A stretch of 26,963 nt of DNA, taken from Thermomicrobiales bacterium. Lineage in GTDB: Bacteria; Chloroflexota; Chloroflexia; Thermomicrobiales; UBA6265. Under the pieces are notes generated by a model that saw nothing but the letters and a program-made list of their open reading frames with translations, ran no database searches and was not told the origin of the DNA. The stretch covers positions 1 through 26,963 of the forward strand of contig DASQCG010000112.1 of NCBI GenBank assembly GCA_035634825.1. Direction: 5' to 3'. The translations under genes and the position numbers were made by a program. This document shows positions 2,602 through 11,213 of this stretch, piece after piece; position 1 is the first letter of the stretch, and each line of letters opens with the position of its first letter.

Positions 2602-3904
2602 GCAATCTGTGCGCTCCTTCGGCCAACGTACCTTCGCCTCACTCTCCGTTCGTAATTACCGGCTGTTCTTCATCGGGCAGGGGATCTCGCAGTGCGGGAG
2701 CTGGATGCAGAGCATCGCCCAGGGGCTGCTCGTGCTCGAGCTGACCGGTTCGGGCACGGCGCTCGGGCTGGTGATTGCCCTGCAGAACTTGCCGGTGCTG
2801 TTCTTCGGACCGTGGGGCGGCGTCATGGCGGATCGCTTTCCGAAGCGGTCCATCCTGTATGTGACGCAAGCGCTCTCGGGAATGCTGGCCCTGACCGTCG
2901 GCGTGCTGGTCATTACCGATCTGGTCCAGCTCTGGATGCTTTATGTGCTGGGATTGATGCTCGGTTTCATCACCGTGTTCGACAATCCGGCACGGCAGAC
3001 CTTCGTGCGGGAGATGGTCGGAGCGGAGCGGTTGACGAATGCGGTCTCGCTCTCCTCGATGGAATTCAACCTGGCCCGGGTGATCGGCCCATCGATCGCC
3101 GGGATATTGGCGGCCACGATTGGGCTGGGCGCCTGCTTCATCGCCGATGGGCTGTCCTACATTGCGGTGCTGACTGTGCTCGTGATGATGCGGGCCGACG
3201 AGTTGCGGCCGGCGGTTCGGGTCGCGAGTGGCAAAGGGCAGCTCATGAACGGGCTGCGCTATGTGCGGACCCAGCCGGTACTCCTGAACACCTTGATCAT
3301 GATGGCGATCGTCGGCATGTTCACCTACGAGTTTTCGGTGATGCTGCCGCTCTTCGCGGAGTTCACGTTCGATTCCGGACCGGGCGCATATGCCTCGATG
3401 ACGGCGGCGATGGGCGCCGGGGCGGTGGTCGGTGGCTTGTTTGCGGCCAGCCGGCGGCGATCCACACTCGGGATGTCGGTTGCCGCCGGCGCGCTTTTCG
3501 GTGCGTCAGTAATGATTACCGCGCTCATGCCGACGCTTCACCTGGCGGTTGCGTCGCTGCTGATCGTTGGCTTCTTCTCGATCACGTTCACGTCGCTGGC
3601 CAATGTGACACTCCAGCTCAGCAGCGCATCGGATATGCAGGGGCGGGTGATGGCGCTCTGGTCGATGGCTTTTCTGGGCACGACGCCGATCGGCGGTCCC
3701 GTGATGGGCGCGATCGGTGAACATGCCGGCGCGCGCTGGGCCCTCGCGATCGGCGGTTTCGCCGCGATCGTGGCGGCCGGGGTCGGATTGCGAGCGTGGT
3801 TGAAATCGAGAAGTCGAGAAGTAGGGTTGAAGGCGAGCAGGCGAGCAGGCGAGCAGTTGACCCCACTAGAAACCAGAAACGAGAAACTGGAAACTCCTTC
3901 GTAA
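2600..3904 (+). CDS. MFS transporter (MFS_3 / transmembrane secretion effector-like)
   Basis: N-terminus RNYRLFFIGQGISQCGSWMQSIAQGLLVLELTGS, motif A-like GGVMADRFPKR, DNPARQTFV, MQGRVMALW; about 12 hydrophobic segments. Confidence 0.9.
   Translation: MQSVRSFGQRTFASLSVRNYRLFFIGQGISQCGSWMQSIAQGLLVLELTGSGTALGLVIALQNLPVLFFGPWGGVMADRFPKRSILYVTQALSGMLALTVGVLVITDLVQLWMLYVLGLMLGFITVFDNPARQTFVREMVGAERLTNAVSLSSMEFNLARVIGPSIAGILAATIGLGACFIADGLSYIAVLTVLVMMRADELRPAVRVASGKGQLMNGLRYVRTQPVLLNTLIMMAIVGMFTYEFSVMLPLFAEFTFDSGPGAYASMTAAMGAGAVVGGLFAASRRRSTLGMSVAAGALFGASVMITALMPTLHLAVASLLIVGFFSITFTSLANVTLQLSSASDMQGRVMALWSMAFLGTTPIGGPVMGAIGEHAGARWALAIGGFAAIVAAGVGLRAWLKSRSREVGLKASRRAGEQLTPLETRNEKLETPS
3806..3895 (+). 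repeat. Cluster of short tandem repeats (8-mer x2, 8-mer x3, 7-mer x4) in the MFS 3' tail
   Basis: TCGAGAAG x2 (3806-3821); AGGCGAGC x3 (3831-3854); AGAAACC/AGAAACG/AGAAACT/GGAAACT (3868-3895). Confidence 0.8.
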
Positions 3905-4020
3905 CCCTCAACCCCTTCTGTCGCCTGCTTGTGCCGCCGGTTACCATGGGCGGACTAGTGTTCCGCGCATCGACGTCTGACCGCGCGGGCGCGAACCCGC
4001 TCGCAGTATCCGGAGGCGAC

Positions 4021-4968
4021 ATGGAGCTCGGAGGCATTCACCACCTGACCGCGATTTCGGCCAGGATCCGTGACAACCACCACTTCTACACGCAGACAAT
4101 GGGCATGCGGCTCGTCAAGCGCTCCGTCAACCAGGACGATGTCTCGGCGTATCACCTCTTCTACGCCGACGCCAAAGGCAGTCCGGGCACGGACCTGACC
4201 TTCTTCGACTGGCCGGTGCCGCCCGAACGCCGCGGCACGCGTGCGATCGTGCGGACCGCGCTGCGGGTCTCGGGCAAGGCGACGCTCGACTGGTGGAAAC
4301 AGCGGCTGGACGAGAAGGGCGTCAAGGCTGGCGATGTCGTGGAGCGAGATGGGCGATCGACGCTCGATCTCGAGGATGCCGAGGGACAGCGACTGGCATT
4401 GATCGATGACGGCGGCGCGGGCGATGCCTTCCCGTGGGATCGCAGCCCGGTCCCGGCCGAGCACCAGATCCGCGGGTTGGGTCCGATCACGCTCAGCGTG
4501 CCGCTGCTGGAACCGACTGATGCCCTGCTCCAGAGCGGCCTGAAAATGCGCAAGGTTCGGGAGTACGACGATCTGCCGCACTCCGAGCGGTCGGTCCACG
4601 TGTACGAGATGGGACCGGCCGGACCGGGGGCCGAGTTGCATGTCGCGGTTCAGCCGGATGGGCCGGTCGCGATGCAGGGCGCAGGCGCAGTGCACCACGT
4701 CGCCTTCCGGATCCCGGATGACACATACGACGACTGGGCGAACCGGCTGAACGACCTCGGCATCCCGAACAGCGGCAAGATCGACCGCTACTGGTTCCGG
4801 AGCCTCTACTTCCGCGAACCGAACGGGATCCTGTTCGAGATCGCGACCGATGGGCCCGGCTTCGGTGTCGATGAGGACATGGCGACGCTCGGCGAAAAGG
4901 TCGTGCTGGCGCCGTTCCTCGAGCCACGGCGGGATGAGATCATCGCCAACCTGAAGCCGATTGACTGA
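4021..4968 (+). CDS. Ring-cleaving dioxygenase, glyoxalase/VOC superfamily (MhqA/MhqE/MhqO-like)
   Basis: GGAGG SD before ATG 4021. Motifs GIHHLTAIS, LVKRSVNQDD...YHLFYAD, GTDLTFFDW, GAVHHVAFR, DRYWFRSLYFREPNGILFEIATDGPGF. Confidence 0.93.
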   Translation: MELGGIHHLTAISARIRDNHHFYTQTMGMRLVKRSVNQDDVSAYHLFYADAKGSPGTDLTFFDWPVPPERRGTRAIVRTALRVSGKATLDWWKQRLDEKGVKAGDVVERDGRSTLDLEDAEGQRLALIDDGGAGDAFPWDRSPVPAEHQIRGLGPITLSVPLLEPTDALLQSGLKMRKVREYDDLPHSERSVHVYEMGPAGPGAELHVAVQPDGPVAMQGAGAVHHVAFRIPDDTYDDWANRLNDLGIPNSGKIDRYWFRSLYFREPNGILFEIATDGPGFGVDEDMATLGEKVVLAPFLEPRRDEIIANLKPID

Positions 4969-4988
4969 GAGGACCAAAGGAAACCACC

Positions 4989-5648
4989 ATGCGAGAGTCC
5001 ACATTGGACTTCGTCCATCGCTACATCCCACCGAATCCCGACGCGGAAGGCGTCTCAGGTATGACGCTGCTGGCGCTTCACGGAACCGGTGGGGACGAGG
5101 CCGACCTGATTCCGCTGGCGCAGGCGATCCTGCCCGGTGCCGGCGTGCTCAGTCCGCGCGGCAAAGTGCTGGAAGGGAATGCCCCGCGCTTCTTCCGGCG
5201 GCTTGCCGAGGGCGTGCTCGACCAGGAGGATCTGAAGTTCCGGACCGCCGAGTTGGTCCAGTTCGTCGAGGCGGCGTCGGCTGAGTACGGGTTCGATCGC
5301 GCCAGCGTGGTGGCGGTCGGATTTTCGAACGGCGCCAACATCGCGGCCAGCATACTCCTGCGTTACCCCAATGCGCTGCGGGGAGCCGCGCTGTTGAGCC
5401 CGATGCTGCCGTTTGAGCCCGAGTCGACGCCTGACCTGGGCGAGACGGATGTCTTCATCGGTGCGGGCCGGACCGATCCCCTCGTGCCGGTCGAGCAGGT
5501 CAAGCACCTGGCGGATCTGCTCAAGTCTGGTGGCGCGAACGTGACCGTGCACTGGGATCAAGGCGGTCACACGATCTCGCCATCGGAGCTCAAGGCGGCC
5601 CAGAAGTGGGCGGCGGGCATCGTCGAGGCGGCCGAGCAGTTCCGATAG
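4989..5648 (+). CDS. Alpha/beta hydrolase, phospholipase/carboxylesterase family (MhqD-like)
   Basis: LLALHGTGGDE, SPRGKVLE..PRFFRR, nucleophile elbow GFSNGANIA, Asp in GRTDPLVP, His in GGHTI. Confidence 0.92.
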   Translation: MRESTLDFVHRYIPPNPDAEGVSGMTLLALHGTGGDEADLIPLAQAILPGAGVLSPRGKVLEGNAPRFFRRLAEGVLDQEDLKFRTAELVQFVEAASAEYGFDRASVVAVGFSNGANIAASILLRYPNALRGAALLSPMLPFEPESTPDLGETDVFIGAGRTDPLVPVEQVKHLADLLKSGGANVTVHWDQGGHTISPSELKAAQKWAAGIVEAAEQFR

Positions 5649-5702: not shown

Positions 5703-6836
5703 TTATTTCCCCGCGATGACCGTTAGTGTCATGCCGGCATCGTAGTGCCCGGTCAGTGCGCAAACGAGTTGGTAGTCGCCTGCCTGGGCGAAGGCGACCT
5801 CGATCTCCCGCATCGCGCCCGGGGCAAGGTCATCGACCGGGATGACTCCGAGCGCCACGTGATGCAGTTCCTCCATGTCCTTCCCGCCGATGCCCGGCAT
5901 ATCGGGTAGAACCATGAACTCGTGCGGGAGTAAGCCGGTATTCGTTACGACGAAGCGATAGGTCTGGCCGGTGTGGAACTCTGCCGGGGAGGCAGTCACC
6001 GCGAATTCGTCGAGTGTCACGTTGACGACGATCGCATCAGACTGTACGGCCGGCGTGCCCGGTGTCGCCTCGCCGTACCAGGCCGCTCGCCAGCCCGTCA
6101 TCTGGTCGATCTCGCGCTGCTGGGCGTCGATGATCTCGTGGGCGATGTCCTTGAGTTCCTGGTGCTTCGCATTCGCAAGGGCTGCCTGCGCCATCATGAT
6201 CGCGCTCTGGTGATGGGGAATCATCATGTCGATGAAGGCGAGATCGAAGGAGCCGGTGACTGAGCAGAGTGAGGCGACGTCCATGGTCGGATCCATGTGC
6301 ATCGATCCCATGCTCTCCATGAGGTCCGACATGCCGGGCATCATCTGGTCCATATTCTGCATCTGCATCATGTCGGCCATCGTGACGGGTGGGGCATCCT
6401 GGTACCACTGGGATCGCCAGGTCTGAAGTTGCGCGATCTCTGCGTCCTGCGCATCGACGATTGCCGGGGCCAGGGCGCGAATCTCCTCGTGCTCGCCCCG
6501 CGCAAGTGCAACCTTGGCCATGGCGACGGCGCCCTCATGGTGCGGGATCATCATGTCGATGAACGCGAGGTCGAACTCAACGTTCATCATCATGCCGTGA
6601 CCAGGCGTACTTCCCATGCCCATGTTTCCGCCCGCGGGCATGCCGTTCATGCCCGCGGCGCCGGTTGGAGTGGCAAGACCGGTACAGGCGCTTCCCGGGG
6701 TGGGAGTTGCGGCATGATGGGCCGAATGGTCCGGTGTCGGCGTGCTGGCGAGGCTGCCGCTGGTCAGCCCAAACACGATCGCCAGGGCCGCGACGAATAC
6801 GGTTAAAAGTCGCATCAATGATGTTCCAAAATCCAT
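5703..6836 (-). CDS. Exported DUF305 (CopM-like, two HH-containing repeats) protein fused to a C-terminal cupredoxin domain
   Basis: Signal-like N-terminus; two repeats DLAFIDMMIPHH...AQ..EI.Q...WR..WY; Met-rich linkers; cupredoxin ligands in PHEFMV...CALTGHYDAGM (C-x4-H-x4-M). Start ATG 6836 with AGGAGG upstream (the ORF track starts at GTG 6863). Confidence 0.88.
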   Translation of the reverse strand: MDFGTSLMRLLTVFVAALAIVFGLTSGSLASTPTPDHSAHHAATPTPGSACTGLATPTGAAGMNGMPAGGNMGMGSTPGHGMMMNVEFDLAFIDMMIPHHEGAVAMAKVALARGEHEEIRALAPAIVDAQDAEIAQLQTWRSQWYQDAPPVTMADMMQMQNMDQMMPGMSDLMESMGSMHMDPTMDVASLCSVTGSFDLAFIDMMIPHHQSAIMMAQAALANAKHQELKDIAHEIIDAQQREIDQMTGWRAAWYGEATPGTPAVQSDAIVVNVTLDEFAVTASPAEFHTGQTYRFVVTNTGLLPHEFMVLPDMPGIGGKDMEELHHVALGVIPVDDLAPGAMREIEVAFAQAGDYQLVCALTGHYDAGMTLTVIAGK

Positions 6837-6846
6837 GACCTGATTT

Positions 6847-6930
6847 GGCCTCCTGTCTGACACGGTCAGCCACCAGCCTGCGCCGGCGGGATTCTCTGAT
6901 TCCGGTCAGGCGGCCTAATTCAGGAAGACC
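6847..6930 (-). promoter_or_regulatory. Predicted SD-sequestering RNA structure linking the end of the upstream small ORF to the DUF305-cupredoxin ribosome binding site
   Basis: On the mRNA, GGUCUUCCUG (6930-6921, in the last leader codons) can pair with CAGGAGGCC (6855-6847, contains the SD). This encloses hairpins CCGCCGGC-GCAG-GCUGGUGG and CUGAC-CGU-GUCAG. Folded by hand only. Confidence 0.5.
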
Positions 6931-7364
6931 TGGAGGAGAGCCCGGCGCACTCCGGGCGGGTAAACCGGTTCGATCGAGACGACCGGGATTTCTTGCCCGG
7001 TCGCGCCTCGCAGGCAGACTGCGGTGTCGACTGGTCCGGCCGCGAGGCGGTGGAGATCCGGAGCGGGGATCGGATTATTGACGCGGACGAGGCCGCAATC
7101 AGTCAACTCCGGGCAGAAATCCGTTGGACACGGGGAGTTGGTTAACGGGGGATGTATCGCCAGATCGGTCTCGTACAGGAGTCCGTCGTGCATCTCGCCG
7201 AATGGGTGGGCTAGGTTGATCTCGACGACACCTGCGGGGATCGGAGTGTCATGCGGATGCGCGGCCATGGCGACGTCGTGGCTGACCAGGGCGATGGCAA
7301 TGAGTGCTATCAGCACCGGCCAGGTCATTAGCAGCGGTCTAGTCAATGCGCGCAGGCGACTCAT
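6915..7364 (-). CDS. Small exported His/Cys-rich protein; candidate copper-responsive leader peptide
   Basis: Signal peptide ending AMA, His-rich segment, C-x4-C-x5-C motif (CPTDFCPELTDC), Pro-rich spacer, C-terminus YPPGVRRALLQVFLN. ATG 7364 has GAGG upstream; alternative TTG start at 7388 has AAGGAG upstream. Confidence 0.7.
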   Translation of the reverse strand: MSRLRALTRPLLMTWPVLIALIAIALVSHDVAMAAHPHDTPIPAGVVEINLAHPFGEMHDGLLYETDLAIHPPLTNSPCPTDFCPELTDCGLVRVNNPIPAPDLHRLAAGPVDTAVCLRGATGQEIPVVSIEPVYPPGVRRALLQVFLN

Positions 7365-7425
7365 CAGTATCCTCGATGCCGGTCGCAAATCGGCCCCACT
7401 CCTTTCAGTCTACGACCGCCCCGGT

Positions 7426-7446
7426 TCGCCGGAGTCATGCCGGCGA
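7426..7446. other. Stem-loop just downstream of the copB stop
   Basis: TCGCCGG-N7-CCGGCGA, 7-bp stem, no U-tract; attenuator or mRNA-stabilising role possible. Confidence 0.4.
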
Positions 7447-7460
7447 CCCTGAATCGGGCA

Positions 7461-9662
7461 TCACTGCGGGCGGATATCAACGCTGCGCAGGAGCTGGGCG
7501 TTGAGCGCGACGATGATGGTCGACGCGCTCATCATGACGGCGCCGGCGGCCGGTGGCAGGTTGATCCCGAACGGCGCCAGAACCCCGGCGGCGAGCGGGA
7601 TCGCGATGACGTTGTAGCCGACTGCCCAGCCCAGGTTTTCGACCATCTTGCGGTAGGCGGCCCGGGAAAGATTGCGCACGCCGACGACCGCGCGGGGGTC
7701 GCTTGTAGCCAGGATCACCCCGGCTGATTCGATGGCGACGTCGGTGCCGGCGCCGATCGCGATGCCGACATCGGCCCGGGCCAGGGCCGGTGCGTCGTTG
7801 ACGCCGTCTCCCACCATCGCCACGGTCGCGCCACGCTGCTGCAACTCGGCGACCTTGCTCTCCTTGTCCTCCGGCAGAACCTCGGCAAAGACTTCGTCGA
7901 TCCCCAGGTCCGACGCGACACCCTCGGCGACCGAACGGGCATCACCGGTGATCATGACCACGCGCACATCCTGCTGGTGCAGCTCGGCGACCGCCTGGCG
8001 TGACTCCGGGCGGACCTGATCCTCGAGGGCCAGCGCGCCGATCACCTGCCCATCGCGCACGACATGCAGGATCGCCGCGCCGCGTTCCTGCCATGCTTGT
8101 TCGTGCTCAGCGAGCGTGGACGGAATTTCCAGCTTCCGCTCGCGAAGCATCGTTGGCCCACCAACCGAGACCTCCGCCCCGTCGACGGTCGCCTCGACCC
8201 CGCGACCGGCAATCGCGCGGAAGTCAGACGCCTTGGGTACATGGAGCTCCCTCTCCTGCGCGGCCTGGACGATTGCCCGGGCGAGCGGGTGCTCGCTATC
8301 TGCCTCGACCGCCGCGGCCAGGGCCAGCAGCTCATCTTCCGCGACATCGACGGCGGCGAGGTCGGTCACGACGTGCTCGCCGAGGGTCAGCGTGCCGGTC
8401 TTGTCGAAGAGGACGGTATCGACCAGGCGCATTCGCTCCAGCGCCAGCCGGTCCTTGACCAGGATTCCGTTGCGGGCCGCGATTGACGTCGAGATCGCGA
8501 TCACGAGCGGAATTGCCAGGCCGAGGGCGTGCGGGCAGGAGATCACCAGCACCGTCACGGTGCGGGTGATCGCCTCCTCGACGTCGCCGATCAGCGACCA
8601 GACGACGAAGGTGATCAGGCCGGCGCCGACCGCCACGTAGAAGAGCGCGGCGGCAGCGCGATCAGCCAGGGTCTGCGCGCGGGATTGCGATGCCTGAGCC
8701 TCGGCGACCAGGCGCTGAATGCCGGCCAGGGTAGTGTCGTCGCCAGTCGCTTCGACCCTCTCCCGGATCGCGGAGCCGGCCACTACCGAGCCGGCCACGA
8801 CCCGGTCGCCGGTGCCGCGCTCAACCGGGCGGGACTCGCCGGTGATCATCGATTCGTCAAGCTCGGCTTGGCCCTCGACGATTCTGCCGTCGGCCGGGAC
8901 GCGGCTGCCCGGACGGACCAGTACGACATCGCCGTTCTGAAGATCGGAGATGGCGACTCTTTCGGTGCCGTGATCGGTGATGCGTTCGGCCTCATCCGGC
9001 AGCAGCGCGGCGAGGGCGCTCAACGCGCCCTGAGCCTGGCCGATGGCGCGCATTTCCTGCCAGTGGCCGAGGAGCATGATCGTGACCAGCAGGGCCAGCT
9101 CCCACCAGAAGTCGAGGTCGAGCAGACCGAGTGTGGTGGCGGCGCTGGCCAGGAAGGCGACGCTGATCGCCAGCGAGATCAGGAGCATCATGCCCGGCGT
9201 GCGGGCGCGGATTTCGTCCAGTCCCCCCTTCAGGAAGACGGTGCCGCCGTAGAGGAAGACGACCGTGCCGAGGACCGGGGCGATCGCGTTGCTGCCGGGA
9301 AAGGACGGCATCGAGAAGTTGAGCCAATCCTGGACCATGTCGCTGTAGAGCACGACCGGGATCGTGAGCAGCAGCGAAAGCCAGAAGCGGCTGCGGAACA
9401 TCTCGACGCTGTGGCCGGCGTGCTTGTCGTGACCGACATGTGGGTCATGGTCAGCATGGCCACCCGGCGCGATGGCCTGATGATCGATGTCGCGGTGGTC
9501 GGAGATGTCACCCCGGCTGGTCATGTCGTCGTGGTCATGGTCCGCGGGTTTGGGCGGCGCGGGGTGATGATCGGAGTGAGGCGAGTGATCCAACTGTTCC
9601 TCCGCGTCCTGGGGGTACGCCGAACCTTGGGGCACCGAGATCGTCTGGCGGAACCGAGTCAT
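7461..9662 (-). CDS. copB: Copper-translocating P1B-3-type ATPase (CopB-like) with His-rich N-terminus
   Basis: CPH transmembrane motif (SCPHALGLA), DKTGTLT, TGES, SEHPLA, MVGDGVNDAPALA, YN and MSAST in the late helices; His/Asp-rich N-terminal tail. Start ATG 9662 or leaderless GTG 9686. Confidence 0.93.
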   Translation of the reverse strand: MTRFRQTISVPQGSAYPQDAEEQLDHSPHSDHHPAPPKPADHDHDDMTSRGDISDHRDIDHQAIAPGGHADHDPHVGHDKHAGHSVEMFRSRFWLSLLLTIPVVLYSDMVQDWLNFSMPSFPGSNAIAPVLGTVVFLYGGTVFLKGGLDEIRARTPGMMLLISLAISVAFLASAATTLGLLDLDFWWELALLVTIMLLGHWQEMRAIGQAQGALSALAALLPDEAERITDHGTERVAISDLQNGDVVLVRPGSRVPADGRIVEGQAELDESMITGESRPVERGTGDRVVAGSVVAGSAIRERVEATGDDTTLAGIQRLVAEAQASQSRAQTLADRAAAALFYVAVGAGLITFVVWSLIGDVEEAITRTVTVLVISCPHALGLAIPLVIAISTSIAARNGILVKDRLALERMRLVDTVLFDKTGTLTLGEHVVTDLAAVDVAEDELLALAAAVEADSEHPLARAIVQAAQERELHVPKASDFRAIAGRGVEATVDGAEVSVGGPTMLRERKLEIPSTLAEHEQAWQERGAAILHVVRDGQVIGALALEDQVRPESRQAVAELHQQDVRVVMITGDARSVAEGVASDLGIDEVFAEVLPEDKESKVAELQQRGATVAMVGDGVNDAPALARADVGIAIGAGTDVAIESAGVILATSDPRAVVGVRNLSRAAYRKMVENLGWAVGYNVIAIPLAAGVLAPFGINLPPAAGAVMMSASTIIVALNAQLLRSVDIRPQ

Positions 9663-9665
9663 CGG

Positions 9666-9680
9666 TACCCCGCCCGGGTA
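9666..9680. promoter_or_regulatory. CsoR-type operator 1 (TACCC-N5-GGGTA)
   Basis: TACCCCGCCCGGGTA lies between the predicted transcription start and the copB ATG; it matches the G/C-tract inverted repeats bound by CsoR/RicR-family repressors. Confidence 0.75.
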
Positions 9681-9691
9681 TATCACATCTG

Positions 9692-9720: not shown

Positions 9721-9811
9721 GGCTCCGGGTGACCAGACGTGGCGTGGGCGCACCCTGTCGACGACGCGGGGCGCATAATGCCGGTGATTGATCAGGGAAG
9801 GAGGGTCTTGC

Positions 9812-10261
9812 ATGGCTACGATCCGGATCAGGGCCAACCGGCGGCTCAACGCCGCGTCCGATCGGGTCTATCGCTGCATTGCCGACTACCGGACGCATCA
9901 CCCGGCGTTCCTGCCGCCTGCGTTCTCCGGCTTCACAGTCGAGGAGGGTGGAGTCGGGGCCGGTACGGTCATCCATTTCACGCTCAAGGCCGGCGGTCGC
10001 ACGCAGACGTTCCGGCAGCGCGTATCGGAGCCCGACCCGGGCCGGGTGTTGACCGAGACGACGATCGGCACCCAGAACAGCACGACCTTCACCGTCACGC
10101 CTGAGGGCTCCGGCAGTAACGTCGCGATCATGACCGAATACGAAGGCGACCACGGTCTGAGTGGGATGATCGAGCGGTTCCTCGCGCCGCTGCTCCTGCG
10201 CCGCCTCTACAAGGACGAGCTGCAGCGACTGGACACCTACACCCGGACCAATCCGATCTGA
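9812..10261 (+). CDS. SRPBCC (polyketide cyclase/dehydrase-like, START fold) family protein
   Basis: AAGGAGG SD before ATG 9812; VYRCIADY..H.P.FLP, GGVGAGTV, EP.PGRVL.E, TTFTVTP, and a C-terminal helix LYKDELQRL. Confidence 0.85.
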   Translation: MATIRIRANRRLNAASDRVYRCIADYRTHHPAFLPPAFSGFTVEEGGVGAGTVIHFTLKAGGRTQTFRQRVSEPDPGRVLTETTIGTQNSTTFTVTPEGSGSNVAIMTEYEGDHGLSGMIERFLAPLLLRRLYKDELQRLDTYTRTNPI

Positions 10262-10268
10262 GCCGGCC

Positions 10269-11213
10269 TCACTGGTTGGCGACGGCCATCGCCGGACCGT
10301 GCCAGACGCCGACCGACCGCCGGCCGCCCACGGAGTAGAGAATCGCGTTGATCTCGGCTCCGAGGAAAAAGACAATCCCGGTCAGGTTCAGGAATACCAG
10401 CAGGACGATCACGGCGCCCACGGCTCCGTACGCGCTGCCGGGGTTGGAGATGCTCATGTAGAGTCCGAACCCAGCCACCAGGGCAAGCCAGAGCACGGTC
10501 GCCACGATCGTACCAGCGGAAACCCAGCGGAACGGCAGATCGACATTCGGCCCAGCCCAGTACAGCACGGCCAGCGCCAGCATGATGCCGAAGATGCCCA
10601 GCGGCCAGCGGGCAATGCTCCAGATCGTATTGAATGCTGAGCCAACCCCGATCCAATCGGCCAGCCAATTGCCAATCTGCTGGCCGAAGACCAGCAGGGC
10701 GACAACGGCATTTACGAAAAGGACCAACAAGAGCGTCAGGCCGAGTTGTATGCCCTTCTTCTTGAGGAAGGAGCGGTCTTCCTCGACGTCGTAGGCGCGG
10801 TTGAACCCGGTTATCAAGGTGCCGATCGCGTTCGAGGCGGCCCAAAGCGCGAGGATTCCGATCAGGATCACGCCCAGGCTGGCAGCATTGCCGCCGACCT
10901 TGGCGACCGCGTTGTCGACCATCCGCAGCAGCATTTCCTGGGTGTCGGCGGGCGCATGCTTCTTGATCGCGTCCTGTATGTTCTCGACGACGGGGACGTT
11001 CGTTACCTCGTTCAGCAGCGCCGCGAACAGAACGGTCAGGAGGATCAGCGGGGGAATCGAAAAGGTCCAGCTATAGGCAAATGCACCGGCCATGGTCGTG
11101 ACCTGGTCGGCCCCGATCTTCTTGTACGCTCGCTTGGCGAGCTCCTTGGCCGGAATCCGGGTGAAGTCGTCCTTCAACTGGGCTAACGTCGATGCATGAT
11201 CATCCGAGGACAT
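10269..11213 (-). CDS. YihY/virulence factor BrkB family membrane protein
   Basis: AGAFAYSWTFSIPPL, ALWAASNAI..L..GFNRAY, LY..GPN, SAYGAVGAVIVLLVFL....FFLGAEINA; AAAGGAG SD. Confidence 0.92.
   Translation of the reverse strand: MSSDDHASTLAQLKDDFTRIPAKELAKRAYKKIGADQVTTMAGAFAYSWTFSIPPLILLTVLFAALLNEVTNVPVVENIQDAIKKHAPADTQEMLLRMVDNAVAKVGGNAASLGVILIGILALWAASNAIGTLITGFNRAYDVEEDRSFLKKKGIQLGLTLLLVLFVNAVVALLVFGQQIGNWLADWIGVGSAFNTIWSIARWPLGIFGIMLALAVLYWAGPNVDLPFRWVSAGTIVATVLWLALVAGFGLYMSISNPGSAYGAVGAVIVLLVFLNLTGIVFFLGAEINAILYSVGGRRSVGVWHGPAMAVANQ

Follow-up and report, generated by a model that had tools for sequence, protein, structure and literature searches.

The window, that is, the whole 26,963-nt stretch of DNA analysed here, carries on its minus strand a small open reading frame (ORF) between a gene for a copper ATPase and a gene for a DUF305-cupredoxin protein. 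The original prediction had placed an ORF between these two genes, and it is found at the predicted position and on the predicted strand. The three genes are as follows:

Positions 7461 to 9686, minus strand: copper-translocating P1B-type ATPase with a His-rich N-terminus (TIGR01511, 2.1e-175).
Positions 6915 to 7364, minus strand: leader-type ORF of 149 aa, from ATG 7364 to the stop TAG at 6917-6915 (ORF list and translation).
Positions 5703 to 6836, minus strand: DUF305 gene, whose exported product carries two DUF305/CopM repeats and, at its C-terminus, a cupredoxin-like domain (Pfam/NCBIfam).

The longest form of the ORF begins at an in-frame TTG (7388) and spans 157 aa. We favor the 149-aa form from ATG 7364, since eight of the nine close homologues use the equivalent ATG and have lengths of 137−149 aa, and since a conserved GAGG lies 7−8 nt 5′ of this codon. 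The DUF305 gene starts at ATG 6836 and has its Shine-Dalgarno sequence (SD), GGAGG, at 6853-6849. Its product matches Pfam DUF305 (5.5e-53) and NCBIfam CopM (9e-34), together with weak matches to cupredoxin/CopI.

Among the homologous loci with enough downstream sequence, all but L032, which has no DUF305 gene, carry the DUF305 gene 3′ of the ORF, and the synteny expected from the original prediction is thereby borne out. The two are separated by 57−103 nt in 22 of the 23 folded loci and by 200 nt in L039, and their pairing is kept also where the flanking genes are unrelated. The P1B-type ATPase gene lies 5′ of the ORF only in some loci, its place being taken elsewhere by a WYL regulator (L037) or an ABC transporter (L038); it is context only and stands outside the conserved module. 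This module is best explained as two genes, the leader ORF followed by the gene for the DUF305 copper-binding protein. A read-through fusion of the two was rejected, because close relatives have gaps of 76, 77 and 78 nt, which cannot all preserve the reading frame. A consensus scan of positions 6700-7600 yielded no promoter, and a terminator scan of the same region found a single terminator-like site, located inside the DUF305 coding region. Rfam returned only sub-threshold chance matches on 6700-7500.

The ORF product is one of about 50 Thermomicrobiales proteins that make up an unannotated family, with 9 close and about 40 distant homologues. A pattern search gave roughly 80 metagenomic and 39 genomic matches beyond those that tblastn confirmed. 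Thermomicrobiales are part of the Chloroflexota, the phylum to which the host had been assigned in the original prediction. No Pfam or NCBIfam model matches the ORF product or any of 17 further family members; DUF2946 (PF11162) in particular is not matched by hmmscan at E≤1 in the window protein or in these 17 members. The family is therefore not DUF2946 by sequence. In place of the CXXC/CxxxC copper motif of the DUF2946 type, a single Cys is invariant family-wide, and instead of RAPP or PPP 2−3 residues before the end there is a PPG 11 residues before the end, followed by VRRALLQVF[LR][IN]-stop. To describe the ORF as analogous to the DUF2946-type upstream ORFs, with a different motif, was thus the right framing. 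In a protein-language search, the nearest named clusters are DUF2946, CzcI and DUF6769 (scores of 0.91−0.94), which share few features with the family and serve as a lead only. DUF6153 (PF19650) is a family of small proteins that adjoin DUF305 genes in Actinobacteria; when the whole genome was searched in all six frames with PF19650 at E≤10, the ORF was not matched, hmmscan was negative as well, and a literature search on DUF6153 found no paper that mentions the family. Structural neighbours in the ESM Atlas have TM-scores of 0.24−0.32, which are meaningless since the model is disordered. Judged by sequence, the family is new.

The elements on which the original prediction was built are all present in the window protein: the hydrophobic N-terminus, the His residues (seven in total), the motif C-x4-C-x5-C, whose C90 precedes the last residue by 59 positions, and the C-terminus. 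They are arranged as follows:

Positions 7263 to 7337, minus strand: N-terminal signal or anchor, hydrophobic at residues ~10-28 and continuing into H29-D30-V-A-M33-A34 (AlphaFold2 and alignment).
Positions 7095 to 7130, minus strand: Cys motif C79-x4-C84-x5-C90 (two alignments).
Positions 6969 to 7094, minus strand: spacer from the invariant Cys to the C-terminal motif, conserved in length and not in sequence.
Positions 6918 to 6968, minus strand: C-terminal peptide P133-V-Y-PPGVRRALLQVFLN149, a candidate arrest or tunnel-interacting sequence (alignment).

Conservation across the family is limited to three parts: a hydrophobic helix at the N-terminus that ends in H-D-x-x-M-A, a single Cys, and the extreme C-terminus. 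The conservation figures given here come from an alignment of 43 sequences, the codon comparison from 24 loci, and the RNA folding from 23 loci. In all members the N-terminus opens with a basic region that leads into about 18 hydrophobic residues, and AlphaFold2 predicts a helix over residues 3−34 (pLDDT 84−97). H29 is invariant, and D30 and M33 are at least 90% conserved in the 43 sequences; the H29-A34 block possibly represents an A-x-A signal-peptidase site, a set of metal ligands at the outer membrane face, or both. The Cx4Cx5C arrangement, which had been read as the copper motif, is indeed present in the window but is restricted to the close subgroup. Distant members have a single Cys, and C90 (TGC, 7097-7095) is the only Cys that is invariant throughout the family.

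The spacer between this Cys and the RR of the C-terminal motif measures 48−51 aa in 41 of the 43 members, although pairwise identity within it is only 14%. The segment between the conserved His and the Cys is equally divergent (14% identity), yet its length ranges from 40 to 65 aa. AlphaFold2, run with the 43 sequences, predicts terminal helices only, the second being a short C-terminal helix at residues 139−148, with no fold between them and pLDDT below 50 for residues 45−130.

The C-terminus reads P-x-x-PPGVRRALLQVF[LR][IN] directly before the stop, and the copy in the window ends in YPPGVRRALLQVFLN, with the PPG codons at 6959-6951 and the RR codons at 6947-6942. Its last 14 residues have a pairwise identity of 85%, compared with 14% in the middle of the protein, and the motif stays near-invariant down to an overall identity of 22−30%. 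The conservation that the original prediction had called for is therefore found across the whole family. More specifically, all 24 loci have R, R, A, L, Q and V without exception, using 2−4 synonymous codons for each of them; the second Leu is present in 23 of the 24, with five codons in use. This synonymous variation over R-R-A-L-L-Q-V indicates that selection acts on the peptide. The P-P pair is at least 90% conserved in the 43 sequences, while the Gly of PPG is replaced by D, E, T, R or A among the 24 loci. All of the roughly 50 motif-bearing members end at the same final residue, and the stop is UAG in 16 of the 24 loci, against 29% genome-wide. In the alignments, this pattern of conservation is that of known arrest leaders, and we know of no arrest sequence that the motif resembles. 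A sorting signal of the sortase or PEP-CTERM type was rejected by inference, the hydrophobic tail being only 8 residues long and following a basic pair.

These observations bear on the main rival reading, possible but less likely than the sensor discussed below, in which the ORF encodes a stable, membrane-anchored or secreted, disordered His/Cys copper-handling protein, and in which the RNA helix P1 described below provides plain translational coupling with no regulated arrest. Such a protein might, for example, shuttle Cu between the exporter and the DUF305/CopM protein, with its C-terminal helix docking on the partner, a version that we hold just as tentatively. The obligate synteny with DUF305 suits a protein partnership equally well, the His-rich composition and the invariant Cys, His and Met would fit Cu(I) binding, and the predicted helix at 139−148 could be the docking motif of the mature protein. 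A disordered tether, however, gives no reason for a Cys-to-C-terminus distance of 60 ± 2 residues, fixed while the sequence has drifted until only 14% identity is left and while the other spacer covers a length range of 25 residues. The lack of a predicted fold and the common end residue also argue against a stable product, as does the proximity to DUF2946/CzcI/DUF6769-type leaders in the protein-language search, which we treat as a lead only. When the mature ORF product was modeled in complex with the DUF305 protein, the pLDDT of the partner was ~29, and the model was given no weight either way.

The RNA from the end of the ORF to the DUF305 start is predicted to fold into the following elements:

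Positions 6902 to 6924, minus strand: helix P1, 5′ strand (MFE and ensemble folds; consensus fold of 7 close loci).
Positions 6839 to 6866, minus strand: helix P1, 3′ strand, which holds the DUF305 SD (GGAGG, 6853-6849; CAGGAGGCC, 6855-6847) and the SD-to-AUG spacer (folds).
Positions 6870 to 6889, minus strand: inner hairpin P2, enclosed by P1, with 8 bp and a 4-nt loop (RNAalifold and hand-anchored alignment).

The core of the P1 5′ strand consists of G6915, the last base of the TAG, together with GCC-G-CCUG (6915-6907); CCUGA/UU in the last codons and ACCGG downstream lengthen it. The favored partner of the SD in the window is this last stop base with GCCGCCUG (6915-6907), in a duplex of -16.1 kcal/mol, and the ensemble probability of the pairs between the SD and the post-stop bases is 0.5−1.0. 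Overall, the predicted fold has one long nested helix that encloses a single conserved inner hairpin, and not the multibranch with two inner hairpins that had been proposed. In P2, RNAalifold counts three of the eight pairs as keeping their pairing through two-sided changes, and the hand-anchored alignment has five pairs with more than one pair type. The MAFFT alignment misaligns the SD of two loci, so that RNAalifold reports P2 and a weak alternative from it, and not P1. This alternative, in which the post-stop GGCC pairs with GGGC of the R-R-A codons, comprises 3−4 bp and was too weak to build on.

Pair-probability analysis assigns the stop and post-stop bases as the main partner of the SD in 10 of the 23 loci, including five of the seven close ones. 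Cognate duplexes of stop region and SD region average -17.0 kcal/mol, compared with -12.9 kcal/mol for non-cognate combinations (23 loci, permutation p<5e-5, a value that is overstated since the loci are phylogenetically related), and the advantage persists with one representative of the close group. P1 is clear in about 13 of the 23 loci; a subgroup ending in TGA, with spacers of 57−61 nt, has weak or different pairing. Furthermore, the last five codons and the stop are nucleotide-invariant in the seven close loci, whereas the same holds for 7 of 40 other degenerate codons of invariant residues upstream (Met and Trp set aside). In this GC-rich genome the predicted SD pairing is of ordinary strength, ranking at the 44th percentile among 375 genes that have a GGAGG SD. 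What gives it weight is its conservation and co-variation, and not its energy. Genes are commonly coupled by an SD that the end of the upstream gene occludes, and this ordinary strength, like a conserved SD-sequestering helix as such, would equally be seen if two partner proteins were plainly coupled.

The original prediction had named the last codons, GGUCUUCCUG (6930-6921), as the anti-SD that closes the multibranch, and had a ribosome on these codons free the SD. The two sequences can indeed pair (-13.6 kcal/mol), folding predicts this segment as the partner of the SD in L003 and L027, and its codons are nucleotide-invariant in the close group. In the window, by contrast, the ensemble probability of these pairs is ~0, and a fold forced to contain them is less favorable by 6.6 kcal/mol. 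Five of the seven close loci and several distant ones use the post-stop sequence as partner, and the co-variation lies between the stop and post-stop bases and the SD flank. The part that stands is an SD predicted to be sequestered in a co-varying helix, but its partner is chiefly the stop and the ~10 bases after it, and the exact mechanism first proposed is very improbable. Those refuting conditions of the original prediction that computation could address, on the motif, the synteny and the sequestered SD, all turned out in its favor.

To compare ribosome positions, we used models in which the ORF body was assumed to be occupied; with a 28-nt footprint mask alone, the SD re-pairs in silico with CUCCUCC of the Leu-Leu codons behind the ribosome. 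With a ribosome at the stop, the median unpaired probability of the SD rises from 0.22 to 0.50, with an increase in 19 of the 23 loci. With a ribosome at the PPG, whose edge lies ~20 nt short of P1, the SD is not opened. The proposal that a ribosome on the final codons frees the SD thus holds in the model for the stop codon but not for the PPG, the predicted release of the SD being confined to ribosomes on the stop or close to it. On this modeling, it looks as though the ORF's own translation unmasks the ribosome-binding site of the DUF305 gene.

The PPG itself would offer another pause site. PPG is a strong EF-P-dependent stalling triplet, the P-P pair is at least 90% conserved, and the Cys-to-PPG distance of 47 residues is near the 43−47 residues from Cys to PPP in CutF. 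A plain EF-P-dependent polyproline stall of this kind, as at the CutF PPP, would leave the RRALLQVFLN tail with some other role. Such a stall is very improbable here, as SD opening is not predicted at that position and as the Gly varies while the RRALLQV downstream does not.

We place about even confidence in our preferred reading of the ORF as a CutF-like, cis-acting nascent-chain copper sensor with a new arrest motif, for which we infer the arrest, the copper binding, the direction of regulation and the route of export. In such a sensor, the N-terminal hydrophobic helix would target the nascent chain to the Sec translocon, and the remaining chain would form an unstructured His/Cys thread. 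At the end of the ORF, the invariant last 14−17 residues (PxxPPGVRRALLQVFLN) would occupy the upper exit tunnel and delay termination or the final steps of elongation. [quoted passage not shown] Force profiles place the translocon at 45−50 residues from the peptidyl-transferase centre, with periplasmic events sensed at ~53−70 residues (10.1101/2021.02.06.430026). Copper bound at the Cys would alter the pulling force on the chain and hence how long the pause lasts. Together with the ~10 bases that follow, the stop codon would serve as the 5′ strand of P1, whose 3′ strand holds the DUF305 SD, so that a ribosome dwelling at the stop would hold P1 open and the DUF305 gene would be translated. A bolder version, which we regard as rather unlikely though conceivable, is a non-DUF2946 class of transmembrane nascent-chain metal sensor with a molecular ruler. 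Here, Cu(I) might bridge the Cys, ~60 residues back and just past the translocon, and the His, Asp and Met of the anchor, clamp the chain, cancel the pulling force and prolong the pause at UAG/UGA, with DUF305/CopM made only when copper is present outside the cell.

The closest comparison is CutF of Rhodobacter capsulatus (cutFOG; DUF2946). Both are small ORFs directly 5′ of an exported copper-detoxification gene, and both have an N-terminal Sec signal and a Cys ligand in a poorly conserved body, each putative in the ORF product, and a conserved, Pro-containing basic C-terminus. In CutF, an intergenic stem-loop shields the downstream SD, and the model is that a Cu-prolonged stall melts this stem-loop (PMC9973294; 10.1101/2025.02.05.636593). 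A stem-loop over the downstream SD is common to both, predicted by folding in our case, and the Cys-to-Pro-motif distance of 47 aa in the ORF product compares with 43−47 aa in CutF. In contrast, there is no sequence homology, the ORF product has one invariant Cys where CutF has CxxxC, and the C-terminus is PEPEGPPPRL-stop in CutF and PPGVRRALLQVFLN-stop here, with the PPG 11 codons before the stop. The predicted productive pause also differs, lying here at the stop codon. Furthermore, the downstream gene is a multicopper oxidase for CutF and DUF305/CopM here, in Pseudomonadota and Thermomicrobiales hosts, respectively.

CruR of Bordetella pertussis (bp2923; DUF2946) is an upstream ORF that senses copper and combines a Cys motif with a conserved C-terminal arrest motif, the spacing between the two being important (PMC9426467). 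The ORF product likewise has a Cys motif and a conserved C-terminus at a set spacing, and little structure is predicted for either protein. CruR works by Rho-dependent termination within a long, C-rich spacer that is unstructured, whereas the 78-nt spacer here is highly structured and occludes the SD. CruR also needs no signal peptide to sense cytoplasmic Cu, and its motif is RAPP, which is absent here.

SecM, VemP, MifM and the candidates of Fujiwara et al. 2024 share with the ORF product an N-terminal localisation signal, a spacer of more than 30 aa and a conserved C-terminal sequence of ~17 aa, together with an SD-sequestering stem opened by the stalled ribosome, an opening that is modeled in our case. 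SecM, VemP and MifM monitor Sec or YidC and precede secA, secDF or yidC, while the ORF precedes a copper protein and carries candidate metal ligands at a fixed distance from its end. Set against four published in-silico criteria for arrest peptides (PMC10987492), the locus departs only in the kind of downstream gene. It has an ORF of unknown function just 5′ of the putatively controlled gene, an N-terminal secretion signal or transmembrane segment, and a spacer of ~100 aa with a C-terminus of 85% identity. As expected of an SD-sequestering helix that upstream translation opens, the pairing of the SD lies inside the footprint of a ribosome at the ORF end and is conserved and co-varying.

Stop-codon arrest is the mode of TnaC and SpeFL, which are cytosolic leaders of 24−34 aa that bind a small molecule inside the tunnel. 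The predicted productive pause with the stop codon in the A site resembles theirs, but the ligand site here would be ~60 residues away and outside the ribosome.

If the ORF product is instead a stable protein, it would still be a new, unannotated copper-handling partner of DUF305 proteins. To our knowledge, only DUF2946 (CutF and CruR) has so far been known to couple nascent-chain copper sensing to a downstream gene. If the nascent-chain sensor is real, an unrelated family in another phylum would have arrived at the same logic, meaning that the strategy evolved more than once, and a new arrest sequence, possibly one acting at the termination site, would join a short list. The fixed spacer of ~60 residues would provide a natural test of how force or ligand binding is transmitted across the membrane to the peptidyl-transferase centre, and the leader would give the first functional handle on the regulation of DUF305/CopM genes in Chloroflexota.

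The candidate copper-sensing leader is an open reading frame (ORF) between a copper ATPase gene and a DUF305 gene, all on the minus strand.

Features of the leader locus (window positions)
7461-9686, minus strand, upstream of the ORF: copper P1B-type ATPase with a His-rich N-terminus (TIGR01511, 2.1e-175)
7388, minus strand: TTG start of the longest form of the ORF (ORF listing)
7364, minus strand: favoured ATG start of the ORF, product of 149 aa (homologues and conserved GAGG)
6917-6915, minus strand: TAG stop of the ORF (ORF listing and translation)
6853-6849, minus strand: GGAGG, Shine-Dalgarno sequence (SD) of the DUF305 gene
6836, minus strand: ATG start of the DUF305 gene, whose exported product has two DUF305/CopM repeats and a cupredoxin-like end (Pfam/NCBIfam)

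The ATG at 7364 was favoured because eight of nine close homologues are 137-149 aa long and a GAGG is kept 7-8 nt upstream of it. The protein features described in the original prediction were all found, namely a hydrophobic N-terminus, seven His, the motif C79-x4-C84-x5-C90 and the ending YPPGVRRALLQVFLN, and the original observation holds, well beyond what chance would give. C90 sits 59 residues ahead of the last residue, and the stop lies 78 nt from the DUF305 gene.

The spacer of about 96 nt between the ATPase and the ORF (7365-7460, minus strand) is conserved in the equivalent spacers of homologous loci (L001-L008). More specifically, a GC-rich hairpin with co-varying arms (e.g., GGAGCCACGGGG/CCCTGTGGCTCC in L001) directly follows the ATPase stop, succeeded by the near-invariant block CGTCGTAGACTGAA and the GAGG SD of the ORF. 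This arrangement may represent a processing or terminator-like hairpin and a promoter for the leader-DUF305 pair; consensus scans of the spacer matched neither a terminator nor a promoter. Judged by eye from translations, the flanks of the copper operon (3796-5648 and 9788-11213) hold unrelated genes, namely ORFs of 390 aa (glyoxalase/dioxygenase-like), 219 aa (esterase-like) and 157 aa and a gene for a 314-aa membrane protein, and no CsoR, CopY or MerR-type copper regulator was seen adjoining the operon.

The ORF is a genuine gene and the founder of an unannotated family. A word-indexed search returned nine relatives of its product, an exhaustive HMMER search 13 representatives, and a profile search 48 proteins, all of which lack Pfam domains. 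When the window protein and 17 members were compared with Pfam and NCBIfam by hmmscan, no relevant match appeared at E<=1. The named genome records carrying the ORF are Thermomicrobiales MAGs. Within the genome collection, the family to which the window belongs has it in 9 of 36 other genomes (a tally that counts one unpublished genome, G011, which entered no other part of the analysis), four sister families in 0 of 24, and the rest of the phylum in 1 of 400 sampled. The pattern RRALLQV[FY][LR][IN] hit 95 stretches of metagenomic and 42 of genomic sequence, of which tblastn confirmed 15 and 3, respectively, as relatives of the window protein; the others may be more distant members, similar at the C-terminal motif alone. 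One locus, L005 (ENA contig_184132, 6001-6396 and surroundings), is the same locus in another assembly, on a near-identical 36.6-kb contig. Many of its genes, the leader (P0006) and the DUF305 gene among them, are frameshifted or fragmented, which looks like an error-rich long-read assembly and not biology.

A DUF305 gene follows the ORF in every locus with enough downstream sequence except L032; in 22 of 23 foldable loci it starts 57-103 nt past the ORF stop, and in L039 it starts 200 nt past it. This synteny holds beside unrelated upstream neighbours (a WYL regulator in L037, an ABC transporter in L038), and the ATPase precedes the ORF in some loci only, so that leader plus DUF305 forms the conserved unit. 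Distant loci encode a DUF305 protein without the cupredoxin domain; in most of them it is about 240-260 aa long and has no extra domain. In some distant loci (L015, L028) the DUF305 protein measures 400-415 aa and carries a C-terminal extension that is not related to the cupredoxin domain of the window's DUF305 protein. At L032:684-1171, where there is no DUF305 gene, a 114-aa Cys-rich protein (starting MPHQINADMRECIANCSDCHNTC) is encoded 143 nt beyond the family member; it had no Pfam match and presumably resembles four-helix-bundle copper-storage (DUF326-type) proteins.

Conservation is concentrated at the C-terminus. Across a 43-sequence alignment, H29, C90, R140, R141, A142 and Q145 are invariant, and D30, M33, P133, P136, P137, G138, V139, L143, L144 and V146 are at least 90% conserved. 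Pairwise identity is 85% over the last 14 residues, 40% in the N-terminal helix, 31% around the Cys and 14% in both spacers. Cx4Cx5C is confined to the close subgroup, and many distant members have a single Cys. The stop directly follows PPGVRRALLQV[FY][LR][INV] in all of the approximately 50 motif-carrying members. Among 24 distinct loci, the codons for R, R, A, L, Q and V vary synonymously (2-4 kinds each) and never alter the residue, and the second Leu is retained in 23; the peptide itself, and not the RNA alone, is therefore under selection.

In 41 of 43 members, 48-51 residues separate the invariant Cys from the RR pair (exactly 49 in 22), whereas the equally divergent His-to-Cys segment spans 40-65 residues. 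The only conserved positions in the Cys-RR spacer are prolines near its ends. AlphaFold2, run on the 43-sequence alignment, predicted an N-terminal helix (3-34, pLDDT 84-97), a short C-terminal helix (139-148, pLDDT 65-73) and no other structure; residues 45-130 fell below pLDDT 50, and the ESM Atlas model has a pLDDT of 0.45. A folded domain thus does not explain the fixed spacer length. The product may instead be a stable copper-handling protein that is simply coupled in translation to the DUF305 gene; we rate this main rival as less likely than a nascent-chain sensor. If a ribosome stands on the stop codon, about 60 residues separate the invariant Cys from the peptidyl-transferase centre. 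In E. coli, force-profile studies indicate that SecYEG is reached at 45-50 residues and that events in the periplasm register at about 53-70 (10.1101/2021.02.06.430026). By these distances, the Cys would just have come out at the outer face, close to the H-D-x-x-M end of the signal anchor, while the conserved C-terminal peptide fills the tunnel.

The SD of the DUF305 gene is indeed paired in the window, as originally predicted, but the anti-SD assignment to the last ORF codons needs correction, as the main partner is the stop and post-stop sequence.

Partners of the SD of the DUF305 gene
UAGGCCGCCUGA, stop and post-stop: duplex -16.1 kcal/mol, ensemble probability 0.5-1.0
GGUCUUCCUG, originally proposed codons: duplex -13.6 kcal/mol, ensemble probability about 0

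Forcing the originally proposed pairs changed the fold energy from -60.6 to -54.0 kcal/mol. The seven close loci all share one architecture (weakest in L003), in which helix P1, formed by [last codons]-UAG-GCC-N-CUG and CAG-G-A-GGCC-[spacer], surrounds P2, a hairpin of 8 bp. RNAalifold counted three of eight P2 pairs as maintained through two-sided changes, and a hand-anchored alignment showed several pair types at five of the pairs. Co-variation of P1 is not visible in the close group because both strands are conserved there. The last five codons and the stop are nucleotide-invariant in this group, compared with 7 of 40 other degenerate codons for invariant residues upstream, which points to RNA-level constraint on exactly the bases extending P1. 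Distant loci do co-vary: UAG-GCC-GA-CC-[variable] pairs with [complementary variable]-GG-AG-GC/U, with P1 arms such as AUCGCG/CGCGAU, GUUGC/GCAAC and GUCCCUG/CAGGUGAC and last-codon/SD-spacer pairs GGUG/CACC and UGAUC/GAUCA.

Across 23 loci, duplexes between the last three codons, stop and 15 nt and the 24 nt before AUG plus AUG were stronger for cognate than non-cognate combinations (-17.0 versus -12.9 kcal/mol; with a single close-group representative, -15.2 versus -12.0), with permutation p<5e-5 in both cases, an optimistic value given that the loci are related. P1 is clear in about 13 of the 23 and weak or different in a TGA-ending subgroup with 57-61-nt spacers. The unpaired probability of the window SD (0.26) is at the 44th percentile of 375 same-genome genes with a GGAGG SD, so energy alone is no evidence, and the case for P1 rests on conservation and co-variation. 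No Rfam family matched. Furthermore, in the MFE fold the PPG (GCCCGG) and RRA (CCGGGC) codons pair perfectly into a local hairpin of 6 bp (6959-6939, minus strand), and the CCC, CGC and CGG codons of this stretch are nucleotide-invariant in the close group; RNAalifold gave a weak alternative pairing RRA codons with the post-stop GGCC. This hairpin may be a by-product of codon choice.

With a ribosome modelled with the stop in the A site, leaving mRNA free only from 10 nt after it, the SD unpaired probability rose in 19 of 23 loci (median 0.22 to 0.50), whereas with the P site on the second Pro of PPG there was no rise (0.20). A productive pause is accordingly expected at the stop codon or right beside it, when the tunnel would contain the entire 14-17-residue conserved peptide. 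UAG serves as the stop in 16 of 24 loci (29% genome-wide) and AAU as the last Asn codon in 13 of 15 (34%), and the bases of both belong to P1.

Similar logic is known from DUF2946 copper leaders. In R. capsulatus, CutF combines a Sec signal, CxxxC, a C-terminal PEPEGPPPRL-stop and a stem-loop shielding the cutO SD, and in the published model Cu on the exported nascent chain prolongs the stall so that the stem melts (PMC9973294; 10.1101/2025.02.05.636593). CruR of B. pertussis carries CXXC and RAPP and acts through Rho (PMC9426467). The present family shares this logic and places its Cys 47 residues from the Pro motif (43-47 in CutF), but differs from DUF2946 in all three respects compared: model match, Cys motif, and type and position of the C-terminal motif. 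It has all four in-silico hallmarks by which arrest peptides have been sought (PMC10987492), its kind of downstream gene aside. The nearest named clusters in a protein-language search, DUF6769, DUF2946 and CzcI, share few features with it and serve as a lead only.

The originally proposed copper-sensing arrest leader withstood computational attempts at refutation and is plausible. Arrest and copper sensing themselves are inferred, and we give about even chances to a CutF-like nascent-chain sensor; variants share what neither it nor the stable protein accounts for. Whichever of the two holds, sensor or stable protein, the family is new, unannotated and linked to DUF305 genes.
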